Source of the DNA: Shigella phage Moonfish
Reading direction: 5' to 3' (one strand)
Sequence record: PQ613263
Length of the DNA: 64,000 bases
Shown here: positions 55,233 to 61,069 of the stretch, piece by piece
Position numbering within the stretch: position 1 is the first letter of the stretch
Layout: each line of letters starts with the position of its first letter
Made by a program: the position numbers and the translations under genes
Notes under the pieces: generated by a model
Told to the model about the DNA's origin: nothing
The model's input: only the letters and a program-made list of their open reading frames with translations
The model's database searches: none

Positions 55233-55553
55233 CTATTTAGTCAGGATGTCGATTACTTTTGAATATTCTGCGTTATAGATACGAGCGTTCTCTGAATCTT
55301 TGCAGAATTCTTCGATACTTTTCTTACGCATAGTCTCGTTCATAGCTGTTTCTTCAGCTAATTTGTTTACGAATGTATGCATTTCTAATTTAGTACGGAT
55401 GGCTTGTTTCTCTGCCATAGTAGATACATATGAATTAAGCATACCTACTGCTTTAGTAGCTGTGCCGAATGTATCTGCAACAGTAGTAGCAGCTGAGTTA
55501 ACAGTACCCAGTAAAGTTCCTGCGGTCATACGTACAGTAGCGGTAGTAGTCAT
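55233..55553 (-). CDS. hypothetical early protein
   Basis: 106-aa ORF downstream of the hairpin at 55596-55610. Confidence 0.5.
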   Translation of the reverse strand: MTTTATVRMTAGTLLGTVNSAATTVADTFGTATKAVGMLNSYVSTMAEKQAIRTKLEMHTFVNKLAEETAMNETMRKKSIEEFCKDSENARIYNAEYSKVIDILTK

Positions 55554-55595
55554 GATGATAGCTCCAATAGTTGATGATAGGACGACATGTCCATA

Positions 55596-55610
55596 ACATG
55601 CGGAGCATGT
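55596..55610 (-). promoter_or_regulatory. GGA-triloop hairpin, candidate vRNAP-type early promoter
   Basis: ACATGC-GGA-GCATGT (6-bp stem, 3-nt loop, same C-GGA-G core) ~45 nt upstream of the 55553 start. Confidence 0.45.
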
Positions 55611-55711
55611 GTAACGTGTAAGGTGGGGTAGGGTAGTGGCTACAGGGTCAACATACCGGGGGGGATGGTTGAGTGTAAGGGTGTAGCCCCAGCCACACCA
55701 CTAAAGCTGAA

Positions 55712-55820
55712 CATAGCTATGATGAAATCCCTAAGAAAAAATATGAGAAGTACTTTCCCTATGCGACTACTGCTAGACATAGCTATCAACATTTTGACAT
55801 GCAAAAATATCATAGCTATC
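55712..55820. repeat. three copies of palindrome CATAGCTAT(G/C) phased 66 and 33 bp apart
   Basis: Copies at 55712-55721, 55778-55787, 55811-55820 in a 267-bp intergenic region upstream of the 55596 hairpin. Confidence 0.5.
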
Positions 55821-56147
55821 TCACTTATAAGCAGCTAAATAGGAGGGAGCATACACCAGGAATATGGATTGAAGGGTATCGCTCGATGTGAAGGTAAGGG
55901 TGTACTTATCAGTGTTCACATGCCAGGGGGAATGTACATATGTAGACCAGGGTAATTCCTTTCCTGGTTCCTGAAGTTTTACAATAACTTTCCTGCCTAG
56001 TATTAGAGCCAGACCTTTCACTTCATGAAGGGTTTGCTCATCTGGTACTAGGATAATAGGAGTGAGTCTACCTGGTTCGAGGTCTTGTAAGGTTGTATGG
56101 GCAGTGGGATTGGGTCCACCAGCATAACCTATCTTAGTGAGTTTCAT
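55821..56147 (-). CDS. small early protein, member of paralogous family (ILVPDEQ..HE..GL motif)
   Basis: 108 aa; core IILVPDEQTLHEVKGLALILG shared with 56848, 57456, 57736, 58336 ORFs. Confidence 0.5.
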   Translation of the reverse strand: MKLTKIGYAGGPNPTAHTTLQDLEPGRLTPIILVPDEQTLHEVKGLALILGRKVIVKLQEPGKELPWSTYVHSPWHVNTDKYTLTFTSSDTLQSIFLVYAPSYLAAYK

Positions 56148-56150
56148 TTG

Positions 56151-56528
56151 TTATACCCCGTAATCTATCTTAACCAGTCTACCTTTGTAGTAACCAAAGT
56201 TCTTAGGGAAGGCATCATACTCAAAGAACTCTTTACCGAGTGGCTGTGGTTCATTGGCTGCATCTAAGTATAGCTTCTCTAACTCTACCCAGAATAAACC
56301 AGTATGTTTCACAGGCTTAGCCCTGTGCATGATTAGAACCAGACCAAATCTATTAGAGTACTTGATTGGGCATAGGAACTTATTGTTGTAATCCTTCCAC
56401 TGTCCTTCAGTTAGATTGCTTAACATACCTTGTACGAAGTGTTTCCATGTAGAGAGGATAGGGAACTTAATTGCGTAATGACGAGTGAGTATTACCCATC
56501 TGGTTCCACCGGAGCGTATTAGTTTCAT
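56151..56528 (-). CDS. hypothetical early protein with kinase-like Gly-loop/AIK and C-terminal DYG motifs (speculative)
   Basis: 125 aa; SGGTRWVILTRHYAIKFP ... HRAKP ... KIDYGV. Confidence 0.45.
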   Translation of the reverse strand: MKLIRSGGTRWVILTRHYAIKFPILSTWKHFVQGMLSNLTEGQWKDYNNKFLCPIKYSNRFGLVLIMHRAKPVKHTGLFWVELEKLYLDAANEPQPLGKEFFEYDAFPKNFGYYKGRLVKIDYGV

Positions 56529-56851
56529 TTGGTAGCCTTGAATTGTGGTAACTGATTAAGAAGACTATCCATGTAGTAGCAGTATGCCTCGGAGGATTCG
56601 TCATTAATTGGAAGACCAATGAATCCAAAGGTATAAATGCAGAAGTGATTAAGCTCATGAACCAAGGTTATCTTACTATCATCAAATATACCCATAAGCA
56701 CAAAGTTGTCCGCTATGTAGCAGGTTTTTCCTTTAAGGGTTGTTTCCTTTTCTGGTTCAGTACCACGGTATGCTTTATGCTTCTTAGAGAATGTAGCCCA
56801 GTCATATACTACTTCTAACTGTACTGGATAGGGGGATGTGTTTAGTTTCAT
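56525..56851 (-). CDS. small HExxH-motif protein (mini-zincin candidate)
   Basis: 108 aa; VHELNHF followed by acidic ESSEAY. Confidence 0.45.
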   Translation of the reverse strand: MKLNTSPYPVQLEVVYDWATFSKKHKAYRGTEPEKETTLKGKTCYIADNFVLMGIFDDSKITLVHELNHFCIYTFGFIGLPINDESSEAYCYYMDSLLNQLPQFKATK

Positions 56852-57132
56852 TGTCTTTCCTTATAGATTAGGGTGTTATCCTCGAAGGATAGAATGTACT
56901 TGTCTGTATTGAGATACCAAGGACTGAAGCTCCCCTGCCAGGACATAGGTGCACTTGGTTCAAGTAGATGTACTTCTGCTTTCTTATTGTATAAGAAAAG
57001 TAATCCTTGTAGTTCATACAAGGACTGTTCGTCTGGAACCAGGATAAGTATATCAGCATCCATGCGAGCTACTTCTTTATGGTGGGAGCAAACATTTCCG
57101 AATTCTCCTGAATAATTTTTATAGATAACCAT
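56848..57132 (-). CDS. small early protein, paralogous family member
   Basis: 94 aa; ILILVPDEQSLYELQGLLFLY ... SPWYLNTDKYILSF parallels the 55821 ORF. Confidence 0.5.
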   Translation of the reverse strand: MVIYKNYSGEFGNVCSHHKEVARMDADILILVPDEQSLYELQGLLFLYNKKAEVHLLEPSAPMSWQGSFSPWYLNTDKYILSFEDNTLIYKERQ

Positions 57133-57452
57133 TAGCAGCTCCCGTCGCTAGATAAATATGAGGTAGAAGGATAGAGGGTAATGAGTCTACCAGTAAGAGT
57201 AGTAGCTACCATAGGTTCGCTGGAGGAGTAGATGTATACCCTCTTACCTTCTGGTATCTCAATAGAGGTATCTATCTTAACAAAGTTAATAGGTACACCT
57301 AACATTAGACAAGAACCAATGAACTCATCTGCTTCCTCACTGGGTTCATAATAGACAGTGACACCATCCAGTTTACCTTCGAAGAAATCCCTCTTAGTTA
57401 GACCAGGCCATCTAATGTTAGAACTGTATGCAGCTAATGTGTAGAAGTGCAT
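57132..57452 (-). CDS. hypothetical early protein (possibly distant member of same family)
   Basis: 106-aa ORF. Confidence 0.45.
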   Translation of the reverse strand: MHFYTLAAYSSNIRWPGLTKRDFFEGKLDGVTVYYEPSEEADEFIGSCLMLGVPINFVKIDTSIEIPEGKRVYIYSSSEPMVATTLTGRLITLYPSTSYLSSDGSC

Positions 57453-57455
57453 AGC

Positions 57456-57770
57456 TTACTTCCTTACATAGTAATAACGGTATTCGTCATTCTCATAACG
57501 ACTAACCCATTGGTAGTCATCAGACACCAACATATATGGGATAGGGTCACCTGCACTGTAGTCGGTATAGACAGAAGGAGGAACAATGCATACAACCTTA
57601 CGGGCATTACCTGCTAAGAAGAGTTGACCCCTTACTTCGTGATAATCTTCTAAAGTAGGAACCAGGATTACTTGGTGAGGATTACTGTTCATGACTTCTT
57701 CTAAAGTGAAGTCAGTTGTGTACAGTAACTTCTCTTTAGTAAAACTGAGGACGGTCATTATGAATTTCAT
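57456..57770 (-). CDS. small early protein, paralogous family member
   Basis: 104 aa; VILVPTLEDYHEVRGQLFLAG. Confidence 0.5.
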   Translation of the reverse strand: MKFIMTVLSFTKEKLLYTTDFTLEEVMNSNPHQVILVPTLEDYHEVRGQLFLAGNARKVVCIVPPSVYTDYSAGDPIPYMLVSDDYQWVSRYENDEYRYYYVRK

Positions 57771-58134
57771 GATGGATTCTCCTTCCTTTGGGAAGAGGTC
57801 TGAAGTAAATGGAAAGTGTTTTATTAAATACGTTATGGTCAGCTATCAATTCCCAACCATCAATCTTATAGAAGCGTACACCGGGAAAGAATGTAGTGAA
57901 GTCACTATACTTAGTGAGGTCATACACCCTTGGTTCAGTAAGTATCTCGGTATTGAGTTGCAGGTTGGATAAGAAAAAAGAACCAATAACTTCATGGGAC
58001 TCTTCACAATCAGGTAAGAAGACTTGCTGCCATGGAGCAATGAACTTACTTACTGCTTCTGGTTCTCCTAAGAGATAAGGCTCCTGCCCTCGTAGTACTC
58101 CGGTAATATCAAAATCAAAACAGTAGATGCTCAT
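57736..58134 (-). CDS. small early protein, paralogous family member
   Basis: 132 aa; VFLPDCEESHEVIGSFFLSN; GGAGG RBS. Confidence 0.5.
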   Translation of the reverse strand: MSIYCFDFDITGVLRGQEPYLLGEPEAVSKFIAPWQQVFLPDCEESHEVIGSFFLSNLQLNTEILTEPRVYDLTKYSDFTTFFPGVRFYKIDGWELIADHNVFNKTLSIYFRPLPKGRRIHHEIHNDRPQFY

Positions 58135-58160
58135 AATTGCATACCTCCAGAAAAAGAAAT

Positions 58161-58186
58161 GGGGTAGAGCCTCTCGACTCTACCCC
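58161..58186 (-). terminator. hairpin plus T-run (terminator/attenuator) in early region
   Basis: GGGGTAGAG...CTCTACCCC 9-bp stem followed on the minus strand by ATTTCTTTTT, immediately before the RBS of the 58134 gene. Confidence 0.5.
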
Positions 58187-58242
58187 TTACCGTTTTCAAT
58201 CACGGGTCAGTTCATCCCCCTAGGTACTTATGTACCATTAGA

Positions 58243-58255
58243 CCTACGGAGTAGG
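58243..58255 (-). promoter_or_regulatory. GGA-triloop hairpin (fourth copy of the C-GGA-G hairpin class)
   Basis: CCTAC-GGA-GTAGG 5-bp stem, 3-nt loop. Confidence 0.35.
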
Positions 58256-58335
58256 AAAGGAGCCGGGGAACCCTGACTGTAGAAGTTATTAACTCTTTAC
58301 GAGTACCGCCACTGTCTACTAGGCGGTATGACTAA

Positions 58336-58626
58336 TCACATCATCTCCGTCATCCGAACGCTATCTTTGCTTCGTTTGATGGAGACACTATGAGGTAATT
58401 TTGTGAAGAACACAATAGCAGAAATAGCTTTTTCTAAAGAGTAACTTTTTGCAGGTTCTTTGACGGTAACCCCTGAAACGTTTTCAAGGAGGAGTATACC
58501 GGACAACTCGTGGTATTCCTGCTCGGTCGTGGTAATGATGATATCTCCTGGCAGGAACCCAGCCTTCTTGTGGTCAAGTTCTACATATCCGTCAAAGGTA
58601 TCATCGCTTTTGGTAAATAGTCTCAA
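58336..58626 (-). CDS. small early protein, paralogous family member (TTG start)
   Basis: 96 aa; IIITTTEQEYHELSGILLLEN; AGGAG RBS 9 nt upstream of a TTG start. Confidence 0.45.
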   Translation of the reverse strand: MRLFTKSDDTFDGYVELDHKKAGFLPGDIIITTTEQEYHELSGILLLENVSGVTVKEPAKSYSLEKAISAIVFFTKLPHSVSIKRSKDSVRMTEMM

Positions 58627-58797: not shown

Positions 58798-59487
58798 ATG
58801 AGTGAGCTAACTAAGCAGCAGATCATTAATGCCTTACCTGCTAACTTCAAAAACAGTGTGACCCAGGAGTTAGTAGATACAATTAACAACATAACCCAAG
58901 ACCAACTGGTTGCTGAGTCCTTCCGTGAAAACTTCATCTCTTACTCTGGTGTTATGAAAGAGGGTAAGTTTAAGACACAGGACTACATGAATGCAGTTCA
59001 GTATGTGACTTACAAGCACATGGGCTACTCAAATAAAGAAGCCTACTTTAAAACATTCCCCAACCGACAAGCAGAACTTGTAGCACGGGGAACCAGTGAG
59101 AAAGATATTAGTGCTTATGTATCTGCTTATCACAGGGGTAAGTTAGTTAACCTCATCATGGAACAAAGTTTGGTTCCAGTGTGGATTGTGAACCAGGACA
59201 ATTATCAGAAGGCAATCAATGTTCAGGTTGAACTGATGACTACAGCAGCAAGTGAGAAAGTAAGATGTGATGCAGCTAACTCTATCCTTACTCACTTAGC
59301 TAAACCAAAAGACCAGGTGACTAATATCAACCTGGACTTGAGGGAGAACTCTGGGTTGACTGACCTCAAGGCAACACTTGCTGCATTAGCTGAACAACAA
59401 ATTAATGCAATCAATAGTGGTGTACCTACTAAAGAGATTGCTGGTTCTAAACTAGTACGTGCAGATGAGGACATTACAGATGTCTGA
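58798..59487 (+). CDS. first gene of late operon; terminase small-subunit candidate (positional)
   Basis: 229-aa ORF immediately upstream of and overlapping the terminase large-subunit gene. Confidence 0.4.
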   Translation: MSELTKQQIINALPANFKNSVTQELVDTINNITQDQLVAESFRENFISYSGVMKEGKFKTQDYMNAVQYVTYKHMGYSNKEAYFKTFPNRQAELVARGTSEKDISAYVSAYHRGKLVNLIMEQSLVPVWIVNQDNYQKAINVQVELMTTAASEKVRCDAANSILTHLAKPKDQVTNINLDLRENSGLTDLKATLAALAEQQINAINSGVPTKEIAGSKLVRADEDITDV

Positions 59488-61069
59488 GTTAATTAAACAG
59501 GAACTAGATGAATGGCTAGACCAGGTGGACTACTCCCACCTTAATTCTTCTAACTATGTTCCCAGTCAGTTCGCTCTTACCTTTGCCAACTTTATTAAGT
59601 TGGTTAATGGCAAAGAAGGGGAATCCAACAAAACACCTCCGGTTCACCTGAAGATGCTGGATAAGATGATTAGTCCGAACCAGTATGTAGTTAACCTATG
59701 CTTCCGTGGTGCTGGTAAGACTGCTGTGTTCATGGAATACTTTACCTTGTTCTTAGCAGTGTTTGGTCACTTGCCAAGTCTAGGTAAGGTAGAAGGAATG
59801 ATTTACGTATCTGACTCAATGGATAACGGTGCTAAGTCTGCACGTAAGAACATTGAGTTTCGATACAAGAACAGTGAGTTCCTTCAGCAATGGATACCTG
59901 AAGCTACCTTTACGGATAACCTATTAGAGTTCCGTAATGCAGAGGGTCATCGACTGGGTGTTAAGTTGTTTGGTGCTAAGACTGGTCTTCGCGGTACGAA
60001 GATATATGGTAAGCGTCCTACACTCTGTGTACTGGATGACTTGATTAGTGATGGTGATGCTAACTCTAAGACAAGCATGGAAGCTATTAAGGATACTGTT
60101 TATAAAGGTGTGAACCATGCCCTTGACCCGACACGTCGTAAAGTAATCTTCAATGGTACTCCCTTTAATAAGGAAGACATTATCATTGAGGCAGTTGAGT
60201 CTGGTGCATGGGATGTCAACGTATGGCCTGTGTGTGAGAAGTTCCCCTGTAGTGAGGAGGAGTTCCAGGGTGCATGGGATGATCGTTTCTCTTACGACTA
60301 CATCAAAGCCCAGTACGATATGGCAGTTAAGACCGGTAAGCTGGCTGGCTTCTATCAGGAACTCATGCTTCGCATTAGTTCTGAGGATGAACGTCTTGTA
60401 CAAGATAGCGAAATTAAATGGTACAGCAGACAGCAACTATTAAAGATGAAGTCTTGCTACAACTATTACATTACAACTGACTTTGCTACTTCGGAGAAAC
60501 AGACCAGTGACTACAGTGTCATATCAGTTTGGGCTTATAGTTCTAATGGAGATTGGTTCTGGGTTGATGGTGTGGCTAATCGTCAGCTTATGGATAAAAA
60601 CTTTGACGACTTGTTCCGTCTGGTTCAAGAGTACCGACCACAAAACGTTGGTGTTGAAGTCACGGGACAACAAGGTGGATTCATTTCCCTTCTTCAAAAA
60701 GAAATGATTAACCGTAACGTCTTCTTTAACTTTGCATCCTCTGAGGGTGGTAAGCCGGGCATACGTCCTGTAACCTCTAAGCTGTCACGCTTTAACCTGG
60801 TAGTTCCATGGTTCAAGGTTGGTAAGATGTACTTCCCGGAAGAGTTGAGAGATACAACTATTATGGGTCTGTTCATGGGCCAGCTTAAACTAGCTACCAT
60901 TAATGGAATCAAAGGTAAGGATGACTGTATTGATACTATCTCCATGCTGGGTTATCTAAATCCCTGGAAACCACAAGCCGGTATGACTATGGTGGATAAC
61001 AAGGGCGACCCGATGTGGGACGAGGAAGAAGAAGATAGTGTTAACCCACTACGTTCATACATTGTGTGA
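59459..61069 (+). CDS. terminase large subunit
   Basis: 536 aa; N-terminal ATPase with Walker A CFRGAGKTAV and Walker B-like CVLDDLISDGD; C-terminal nuclease-like region. Confidence 0.75.
   Translation: MQMRTLQMSELIKQELDEWLDQVDYSHLNSSNYVPSQFALTFANFIKLVNGKEGESNKTPPVHLKMLDKMISPNQYVVNLCFRGAGKTAVFMEYFTLFLAVFGHLPSLGKVEGMIYVSDSMDNGAKSARKNIEFRYKNSEFLQQWIPEATFTDNLLEFRNAEGHRLGVKLFGAKTGLRGTKIYGKRPTLCVLDDLISDGDANSKTSMEAIKDTVYKGVNHALDPTRRKVIFNGTPFNKEDIIIEAVESGAWDVNVWPVCEKFPCSEEEFQGAWDDRFSYDYIKAQYDMAVKTGKLAGFYQELMLRISSEDERLVQDSEIKWYSRQQLLKMKSCYNYYITTDFATSEKQTSDYSVISVWAYSSNGDWFWVDGVANRQLMDKNFDDLFRLVQEYRPQNVGVEVTGQQGGFISLLQKEMINRNVFFNFASSEGGKPGIRPVTSKLSRFNLVVPWFKVGKMYFPEELRDTTIMGLFMGQLKLATINGIKGKDDCIDTISMLGYLNPWKPQAGMTMVDNKGDPMWDEEEEDSVNPLRSYIV

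Follow-up and report, generated by a model that had tools for sequence, protein, structure and literature searches.

A short palindrome occurs three times in the DNA of Shigella phage Moonfish (sequence record PQ613263), in a stretch of 64,000 nucleotides that was analysed as a whole and is referred to here as the window. The window is a permuted form of a G7C-like N4-type coliphage (Gamaleyavirus, Schitoviridae), the region concerned showing 83-98% identity to Gamaleyavirus phages, and the palindromes occupy the concatemer junction, with the last right-arm gene on one side and the terminal repeat on the other, next to the physical left end of the packaged genome. Comparison of junctions among relatives has shown that one copy of the palindrome is under constraint in Gamaleyavirus and that additional copies are optional, arising via changes of 33- and 66-bp modules. 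It is suggested, tentatively, that the palindrome may be a binding element, specific to the genus, for a protein of the end-forming or packaging complex, a reading that we regard as possible though short of probable. The element itself is a well-supported sequence feature with a putative function.

Palindrome copies and the physical genome end

The 64 kb contains the 9-mer CATAGCTAT three times only, on the plus strand at 55712, 55778 and 55811. An initial annotation of this DNA had reported three copies of a palindrome at these positions, spaced by 66 and then 33 bp, and both the copies and the spacing between successive copies were confirmed. The 9-mer is strictly speaking non-palindromic; the palindromic core is the 8-mer ATAGCTAT, which begins at 55713, 55779 and 55812. 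Exact matches to this core are confined to the three copies, and its one-mismatch variants (n=33) are scattered through the window. The three copies are as follows.

55712-55721: copy 1, CATAGCTATG, a perfect 10-bp palindrome; end-proximal, beginning 16-17 bp outside the genome end
55778-55787: copy 2, CATAGCTATC
55811-55820: copy 3, CATAGCTATC; distal, 33 bp from copy 2

Copies 1 and 2 have ACATAGCTAT in common, and by its downstream flank (CAACATTTTGACATGCAAAAATAT) copy 2 matches the proximal copy of those relatives that carry a single junction module. Copy 3 starts 1 nt past the stop codon of the last right-arm gene.

The clustering was compared with that in 300 dinucleotide-preserving shuffles of the window, scored for k-mers occurring three times within 110 bp. 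Some 8-mer was tripled in this way in 25 of the 300 shuffles and some 9-mer in two, with a palindromic 8-mer tripled in none. The cluster is therefore considered to be real and non-random, and these controls together with the uniqueness of the motif in the window rule out a chance origin. The sites had also been proposed to lie on the same face of the helix. At 10.5 bp per turn the distances of 33, 66 and 99 bp correspond to 3.14, 6.29 and 9.43 turns respectively, so that same-face phasing holds roughly for the 33-bp step and fails as a strict claim, copies 1 and 3 being 99 bp apart and therefore on nearly opposite faces.

Genes local to the palindromes are on the minus strand. The position of the copies relative to the genome end is given by the following features.

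55695-55697: physical left end of the genome as packaged; it corresponds to the 'left end' of N4 and forms one boundary of the terminal repeat
55295-55696, minus strand: direct terminal repeat of ~400 bp, present as a single copy in the permuted window and holding the hairpin promoter and most of gp1
55600-55612, minus strand: N4-type virion-RNA-polymerase hairpin promoter, the P1 equivalent, CATGC-GGA-GCATG on the plus (template) strand, directed leftward into gp1
55233-55553, minus strand: homolog of N4 gp1 (66% identity), the first early gene
55821-56147, minus strand: last right-arm gene, 108 aa, phrog_16338, with its stop codon TGA at 55821-55823; its position is that of G7C gp71.2

The left end is placed at 55695-55697 by four independent lines of evidence. 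The annotated repeat boundary of G7C corresponds to 55695 and that of Mimir124, which has a 403-bp repeat, to 55696. The GenBank records of PhAPEC7 and PD38 begin at the left-end position. The start of the N4 record, TGGTGGGGCTACACCCC, aligns with the reverse complement of 55679-55695 (TGGCTGGGGCTACACCC), and the final sequence of the same record is the homolog of the palindrome region. Finally, sequencing of IME11, a G7C-like phage, gave left-end read-start sequences GTGGCTGGGG, TGTGGCTGG and TGGCTGGGG, with high-frequency read starts at GTGGCTGGGGCTACACCC (240 reads), TGTGGCTGG (180) and TGGCTGGGG (102), and placed the other repeat boundary at AATCTTTGCAGAAATCTTCG (486 reads), giving a direct terminal repeat of 401 bp (PMC3896407). 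These read starts map in the window to 55695-55697 and to 55295, from which position the window reads AATCTTTGCAGAATTCTTCG.

The palindrome region (55697-55820, the last ~125 bp) is the final unique DNA before the terminal repeat, bounded by the cut and by the stop codon that closes the last right-arm gene. The palindromes are ~420-520 bp from the right end of virion DNA, and the left end is without them. The proximal copy adjoins the cleavage site that makes the mature end, at 16-17 bp, the end in this phage having been mapped by homology. What had been annotated as an early intergenic region is therefore the concatemer junction, and the description of the palindromes as immediately upstream of a hairpin promoter applies in the permuted sequence only, the promoter being ~100 bp off with the genome end between. 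In permuted assemblies of phages with terminal repeats, regulatory readings can mislead because the DNA 'upstream of the first early promoter' is the other genome end.

The P1 assignment was based on the published features of N4 virion-RNA-polymerase hairpin promoters (PMC4496689), and the stem is changed on both sides with pairing kept, being GTTGC-GGA-GCAAC in G7C and GTTGC-GAA-GCAAC in N4. The palindrome does not belong to this class, in which a 5-7 bp stem and a 3-nt purine-rich loop are present on the template strand, as ATAGCTAT is loopless. The left end, together with its first ~500 bp, has been described as the part of the genome to enter the cell first and as a template of the injected polymerase (PMC4496689). 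Once the linear genome has been injected, no DNA lies upstream of its left hairpin copy, and the palindromes therefore cannot be an early operator; an upstream operator of the hairpin promoter was rejected, the genome end sitting between the two. The earlier suggestion of a site for a dimeric protein survives in so far as a short perfect palindrome fits binding by a dimer, and is withdrawn as regards an operator at an early promoter.

Some further observations concern the repeat and its ends. A near-copy of the motif, CATAGCTGT, is found at 55341-55360 inside the gp1 gene, within the hairpin TAGCTGTTTCTTCAGCTA and ~46 bp inside the other terminal-repeat boundary (55295). This near-copy could be there by chance, one-mismatch variants coming approximately every 2 kb. 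At the left end the terminal ~14 nt are complementary to a segment ~50 nt inward (55627-55644 and 55682-55699; 18-nt arms, 72% complementary, with a GGCTACA / TGTAGCC core), and the left end could snap back on itself. The record of Escherichia phage Jgk1 (L026; PV292302, an UNVERIFIED record) contains the left-end anchor twice, 500 bp apart, and has the other terminal-repeat boundary joined straight to the junction element, which suggests that the terminal repeat was assembled in tandem at the end of the record.

The junction among relatives

Equivalent junctions were taken from GenBank phages, IMG/VR and metagenomes, giving 32 distinct junctions of which 26 are of the G7C type, and column identities were computed on 23 distinct single-module junctions. 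The end-proximal ACATAGCTAT, whose positional match in the window is copy 1, is exact in 23 of the 26 G7C-type junctions and lies at a fixed offset of 16-17 nt from the end. The variants are those of ECBP1 (ACATAACTAT), L046 (ATATAACTAT) and L050 (AAGTAACTAT); ECBP1 and L046, which have lost the proximal copy, carry an exact one at another place in the junction. In all, 25 of the 26 retain one or more exact copies. The ten motif columns have a mean identity of 0.983, compared with 0.79 across the 11 columns before and 0.76 across the 12 after, and the flanks come in many different combinations. The proximal copy is kept equally with or without a strong terminator preceding it. In ~266 kb of related loci the 8-mer was found 43 times in equivalent junctions and five times elsewhere, against ~6 expected from composition.

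The expectations of enrichment and of conservation that went with the initial annotation were thus borne out, in that the motif is unique to the junction in the window and at chance level elsewhere in the relatives, and one copy is strongly conserved between variable flanks. Absence of the sites from otherwise conserved relatives, which had been named as a finding that would speak against them, does apply to the second and third copies and to some Kaypoctaviruses; it does not apply to the end-proximal copy within Gamaleyavirus.

The junction contains one other strongly conserved element.

55799-55810, minus strand: T-run/A-tract block ATATTTTTGCAT, between copies 2 and 3, with 100% column identity in the 23 junctions

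This second invariant island (ATGCAAAAATA, identity 1.00) is a T-run on the gene strand, and in relatives with a GC-rich hairpin (pSb-1, L015, L033, L045) the block is the tail of an intrinsic terminator. The distal copy of the palindrome, exactly 33 bp away, is exact in only 11 of the 26 G7C-type junctions and has a mean column identity of 0.73. It carries one mismatch in ST4, E20, K57alpha1.2, L038 and L046, is replaced by a mini-hairpin, ATAG-GCA-CTAT, in PE007, L016 and L035, and is replaced by a GC-rich terminator hairpin with the T-run as its tail in pSb-1, L015, L033, L045, Kaypoctavirus and N4. Copy number among close relatives ranges from 0 to 4, most having one or two, and where there are several copies they are always 33 bp or a multiple of 33 bp apart. 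In some relatives an extra (A/G/T)NAGCTA(T/C) is seen 10 bp, or one helical turn, before the proximal copy, as in the ACAGCTAT-AC-ATAGCTAT of phi G17 (compare also the L001, L003 and L038 junctions).

The three copies of the window are accounted for by an insertion relative to most junctions.

55700-55765: extra 66-bp junction module carrying copy 1, a minus-strand T-run (55733-55744) and a weak dyad (55741-55762); it appears as an alignment gap, most relatives being ~66 bp shorter

The module also contains AATCCCTAAGAAAAAATATGAGAAG and resembles the N4/Kaypoctavirus type of junction in its order of motif, spacer, T-run and terminator stem; BLAST matches to N4 and to Klebsiella phages run through copy 1 to ~55742. 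Its layout is common to only one other contig, L038, in which the third site is the one-mismatch form TATAACTAT. A different 66-bp tandem module is present in L046 (ERZ808240 NODE-746), with four motif-like sites at exact 33-bp steps. The 66-bp step is considered a by-product of duplication or recombination of junction modules, because the extra module is found in L038 only and that of L046 is different. Three phased sites are therefore not a conserved design, as had been supposed, most relatives having one or two and the 66-bp module recurring in a single contig. The recurring feature of the junctions is the 33-bp register, which is only roughly same-face.

On the far side of the palindromes a ~27-nt element (55820-55846, minus strand, CCTCCTATTTAGCTGCTTATAAGTGAG) is kept at the end of the last right-arm gene although the gene itself differs from phage to phage. 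The element has stop codons in all three frames, and a related element lies between gp71 and gp72 of N4. In PE007-type phages the plus strand of the same element is the ribosome-binding-site region of an oppositely oriented gene.

Possible functions of the palindrome

A short perfect palindrome that is unique in the genome and stands at a fixed distance from the cut would be best explained by a two-fold symmetric packaging or end-forming protein. In replicating DNA one copy of the ~400-bp terminal repeat follows each genome, and the palindromes are in the last unique DNA ahead of it. The end-proximal ACATAGCTAT would be the recognition site for a dimeric or two-fold symmetric phage protein, within a nucleoprotein complex that would make the left-end cut, load the packaging motor onto the adjacent right-end DNA, or do both. 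Tailed phages release first the DNA that they package last. Since injection begins with the left end, this end should be the last to be packaged; the DNA packaged at the start of each new genome would then carry the site, just past the cut that terminates the preceding one, in a position like that of lambda cosB beside cosN or of the unique right-end signals at the T3/T7 junction. Any further copies, kept at 33-bp intervals with the invariant A-tract between them, would be added and dispensable binding sites, and duplication or recombination of 33- and 66-bp modules would have brought their number to three in this phage.

Counted in support of an end-forming or packaging element were the position of the end, conservation of the motif, its specificity to the junction, the 33-bp register, independence from the terminator and the proximity of the terminase genes, which are the late genes nearest to the palindromes, ~3 kb off.

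58798-59487, plus strand: N4 gp69 homolog, candidate small terminase, 229 aa, phrog_2109 (function unknown), overlapping the start of the large terminase gene
59459-61069, plus strand: terminase large subunit (phrog_38, E = 9.5e-102; Pfam Terminase_6C)

The 64 kb contains only three matches to the IHF consensus WATCAANNNNTTR. That at 55784-55796, TATCAACATTTTG, directly adjoins copy 2; in most relatives the sequence here is ATCAC, one mismatch from the consensus. The DNA from 55821 to 58626 is occupied by ~8 open reading frames (ORFs) of 94-132 aa on the minus strand, belonging to PHROGs of unknown function (the N4 gp70-72 region). Two of these are phrog_16338 paralogs, several have an (I/L)LVPDEQ..HE..G motif in common, and the gene content of this arm is hypervariable among relatives.

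Several comparisons weigh against an end-forming or packaging role. At the same place N4 has the degenerate, non-palindromic CATAGTTAC, and among the six junctions of N4/Kaypoctavirus type the motif is present in L005 and L049 and absent in three of Kaypoctavirus type and in N4 itself. Two Kaypoctaviruses, VLCpiP4b with the motif and phi1_146050 with ACATACATAAG in its place, have gp69-like proteins that are 99% identical. Identity of the window's protein to N4 gp69 is 78%, and to the homologs of distant Schitoviridae ~62%, an unusual degree of conservation that extends to homologs in Achromobacter and Sinorhizobium phages. Given these identities of 99% and 78% despite loss of the motif, the palindrome is unlikely to be an essential target of that protein. 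Conservation of the site along with the terminase subunit that might recognise it is seen within Gamaleyavirus but breaks down in the Kaypoctavirus phi1_146050 and in N4, and a link between the palindrome and the small terminase candidate was rejected on the Kaypoctavirus comparison. The assignment of the gp69-like ORF as small terminase rests on gene position and database names, the ORF being annotated as terminase small subunit in PP889499 and one source calling a homolog 'Small terminase subunit'; no Pfam or PDB match to the protein was found. In Pseudomonas phage LUZ7 no 8-bp palindrome was found in the 200 bp outside the mapped repeat, and an end-adjacent palindrome was rejected as a general trait of Schitoviridae. 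Confidence in a packaging or end-forming role is low because the Kaypoctavirus and N4 comparisons were negative.

The conservation of the gp69-like protein across the family makes a family-wide target likelier, which also tells against the palindrome. One such target may be the C-run CCCCCCCGGT (gene strand), of at least 7 C, which lies ~30 nt inside the left end and is kept in G7C-like phages and in Kaypoctavirus. The plus-strand G-runs of the window at 55659-55665 and 55621-55636 are C-runs on the gene strand, the run ranging from 7 to 12 in length. The corresponding position in N4 is occupied by a related C-run, CACCCCCCCCCTG; LUZ7, which shares CCCCCCCGGT, reads CTCCCCCCCGGT ~27 nt inside its end as mapped by run-off. 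As an end or packaging signal common to the whole family, the C-run is preferred to the palindrome as a candidate. Beside the C-run is GGTGGGGTAGGGTAG, which makes the template strand prone to form a G-quadruplex.

A more specific version of the packaging proposal, which we consider doubtful, is that a dedicated dimeric protein, not necessarily the gp69-like one, would read the site, set the left-end cut ~16 bp away and start the next round of packaging. Under this proposal the 33-bp register and variable copy number might reflect cooperative binding on a bent A-tract scaffold.

It is unlikely, but worth serious consideration, that the palindrome is a recombination joint or relic, in which short modules have been duplicated, swapped and collapsed beside a recombinogenic end and ATAGCTAT marks a module boundary with no dedicated sequence-specific function. 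On this account the distal copy may have come from a terminator stem that collapsed, leaving its two arms as ATAG|CTAT, and ATAG-GCA-CTAT (PE007, L016, L035) or an ATAGG...CCTAT hairpin (N4) is indeed found in its place. The shuffled combinations of flanks, with ST4 joining the flank of the first module of the window to a G7C-type T-run, are in agreement with such an origin, as are the duplication of 66-bp modules in two different forms (the window and L038; L046), the free decay of the distal copy (identity 0.73, one-mismatch forms) and the loss of the motif in several Kaypoctaviruses. A 10-bp island at 98% between flanks at 76-79% in 23 sequences is, however, hard to obtain without selection or directed conversion. 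Retention of at least one exact copy in 25 of 26 junctions also argues against a mere boundary, and cassettes of 11-12 bp are not the usual unit of exchange.

An operator or roadblock, at which a phage or host dimer controls right-arm transcription that crosses the junction into the repeat, and which might replace a lost terminator, is distinctly unlikely. It would be served by palindromic sites 33 bp (~3 turns) apart with an A-tract between, and G7C-type junctions are without the GC-rich terminator stem of pSb-1, N4 and Kaypoctavirus. A -10-like hexamer, TATNAT, overlaps the distal copy on the gene strand; it is TATGAT in the window and TATAAT in G7C, where TTAACT precedes it at 18 bp. However, only three of six -35 positions match in the window and this version fails the promoter scan, which was empty on the minus strand; the proximal copy has no promoter, and it is conserved equally when it lies downstream of a strong terminator. 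A perfect TTGACA at 55794 on the plus strand is not conserved in relatives. The injected polymerase uses P1, the promoter nearest in the sequence, on DNA in which the left copy is without palindromes. No cognate regulator turned up among the neighbouring ORFs, which are PHROGs of unknown function, no systematic helix-turn-helix search having been made.

Other transcriptional candidates at the junction were rejected. A sigma-70 promoter is not favoured, the scan having given one weak plus-strand candidate and none on the gene strand, with the plus-strand TTGACA not conserved. A recurring promoter motif, for example for N4 RNA polymerase II, was rejected as ATATTTTTGCAT, CTGCTTATAA and the palindrome are each unique in the window. 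A T7-promoter-like CTCACT beside copy 3 on the plus strand is a match of 6 nt only. Small ORFs spanning the junction (57 aa, on both strands) run across the physical end and in G7C have either no start or another length, and were likewise dismissed.

A replication element is a still weaker proposition and we consider it very unlikely, whether as an origin-like cluster or as a T7-like fold-back primer that would duplicate the terminal repeat during concatemer processing. The T7 hairpin has been mapped in unique DNA beside the repeat, and the hairpin end at the T7 junction was reportedly proposed as a fold-back primer by Chung, Nardone and Hinkle in 1990 (a paper cited in PMC4925675). Similarly, the palindromes are in unique DNA directly beside the repeat, in an AT-rich region with the P1 transcription start ~100 bp off, and an imperfect palindrome of 47 bp (arms of 21 nt with 76% complementarity, loop of 5 nt) has copies 2 and 3 as the outer parts of its arms. 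However, this fold is no more stable than those of shuffled sequences (z = -1.7 as DNA, -1.4 as RNA), its inner arms are non-complementary in Mimir124-type relatives, one-mismatch variants are uncompensated and single-copy relatives cannot fold back at all. As to an origin, no DnaA-box or iteron array was found at the junction, no N4 origin is known to lie here and literature searches for one were fruitless, and with one conserved copy, a copy number of 0 to 4 and no other repeat family in the junction the arrangement is not that of an origin. Of the remaining possibilities raised by the initial annotation, neither a host-factor array nor an origin-like element was therefore upheld, no convincing architecture of either kind having been found at the junction.

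An RNA-level element at the 3' end of the right-arm transcript, acting as a terminator or processing structure, is scarcely credible: the invariant T-run ATATTTTTGCAT is a true terminator tail in some relatives and the palindrome copies are able to pair with each other in RNA, but the T-run lies between the pairing partners and not after them, a scan of 55696-55820 for terminator-like sites gave none, and many relatives possess one copy only. The palindromes themselves are AT-rich and loopless, and true terminators in relatives use a separate GC-rich hairpin. With no terminator called, z-scores of -1.4 and -1.7 and no Rfam match, RNA structure was rejected as the basis of the motif.

Comparison with known systems

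Formation of N4-type ends, in which one precise end is combined with short repeats of variable length, has not been worked out. The searchable literature on N4-type ends describes ends and repeats, and in it no motif outside them and no cis-acting signal was found; a literature search for the motif string returned only unrelated primers. If the proposed role in end formation is correct, the palindrome would be the first defined cis-acting end-forming signal in Schitoviridae, and as a conserved and unique palindrome 16-17 bp from a mapped cut it offers a concrete and cheap target for mutagenesis and binding tests.

One comparison is with N4 and IME11. The genome end is the same, with homology in its first ~17 nt as well as in the C-run, in the P1 hairpin and in gp1; these phages share a unique left end and short variable terminal repeats, and the position of the end has been mapped experimentally in IME11. 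The difference is that in N4 the palindrome is replaced by CATAGTTAC.

Two other kinds of sequence are similar in form. The operators of phage repressors of the lambda, 434 and P22 type are also short dyad-symmetric sites at roughly integral helical turns, but at the junction there is no conserved promoter overlap, no regulator gene was identified and copy number varies from 0 to 4. The boundary sequences of mosaic joints likewise form small conserved islands between shuffled segments, here in a region of hypervariable gene cassettes; in this case, however, the variable segments measure only 11-12 bp, and what lies between them is a perfect palindrome whose distance from the genome end is fixed.

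In T3 and T7 packaging signals are present at the concatemer junction in the unique right-end DNA beside the repeat. These phages resemble the present one in being podoviruses with short direct terminal repeats, in that the left end is injected first and in having one repeat copy per junction, which needs to be duplicated. A dyad-symmetric sequence in unique right-end DNA beside the repeat is common to both, although the dyad here is weak and not conserved, the terminases are unrelated in sequence and the comparison implies no similarity of sequence.

In lambda the nicking site cosN is flanked by the terminase-binding R sites of cosB and by an IHF site. The junction described here differs in that this phage makes ~400-bp direct terminal repeats where lambda makes cohesive ends, and in that the putative sites are perfect palindromes instead of R-type repeats, with only one copy conserved. 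The likeness to cos lies in short repeated sites that belong to the next genome's DNA and stand some tens of bp from the cut, all on one side of it, and in a bend element between the sites, represented here by the invariant A-tract and, in some relatives, by the match to the IHF consensus.

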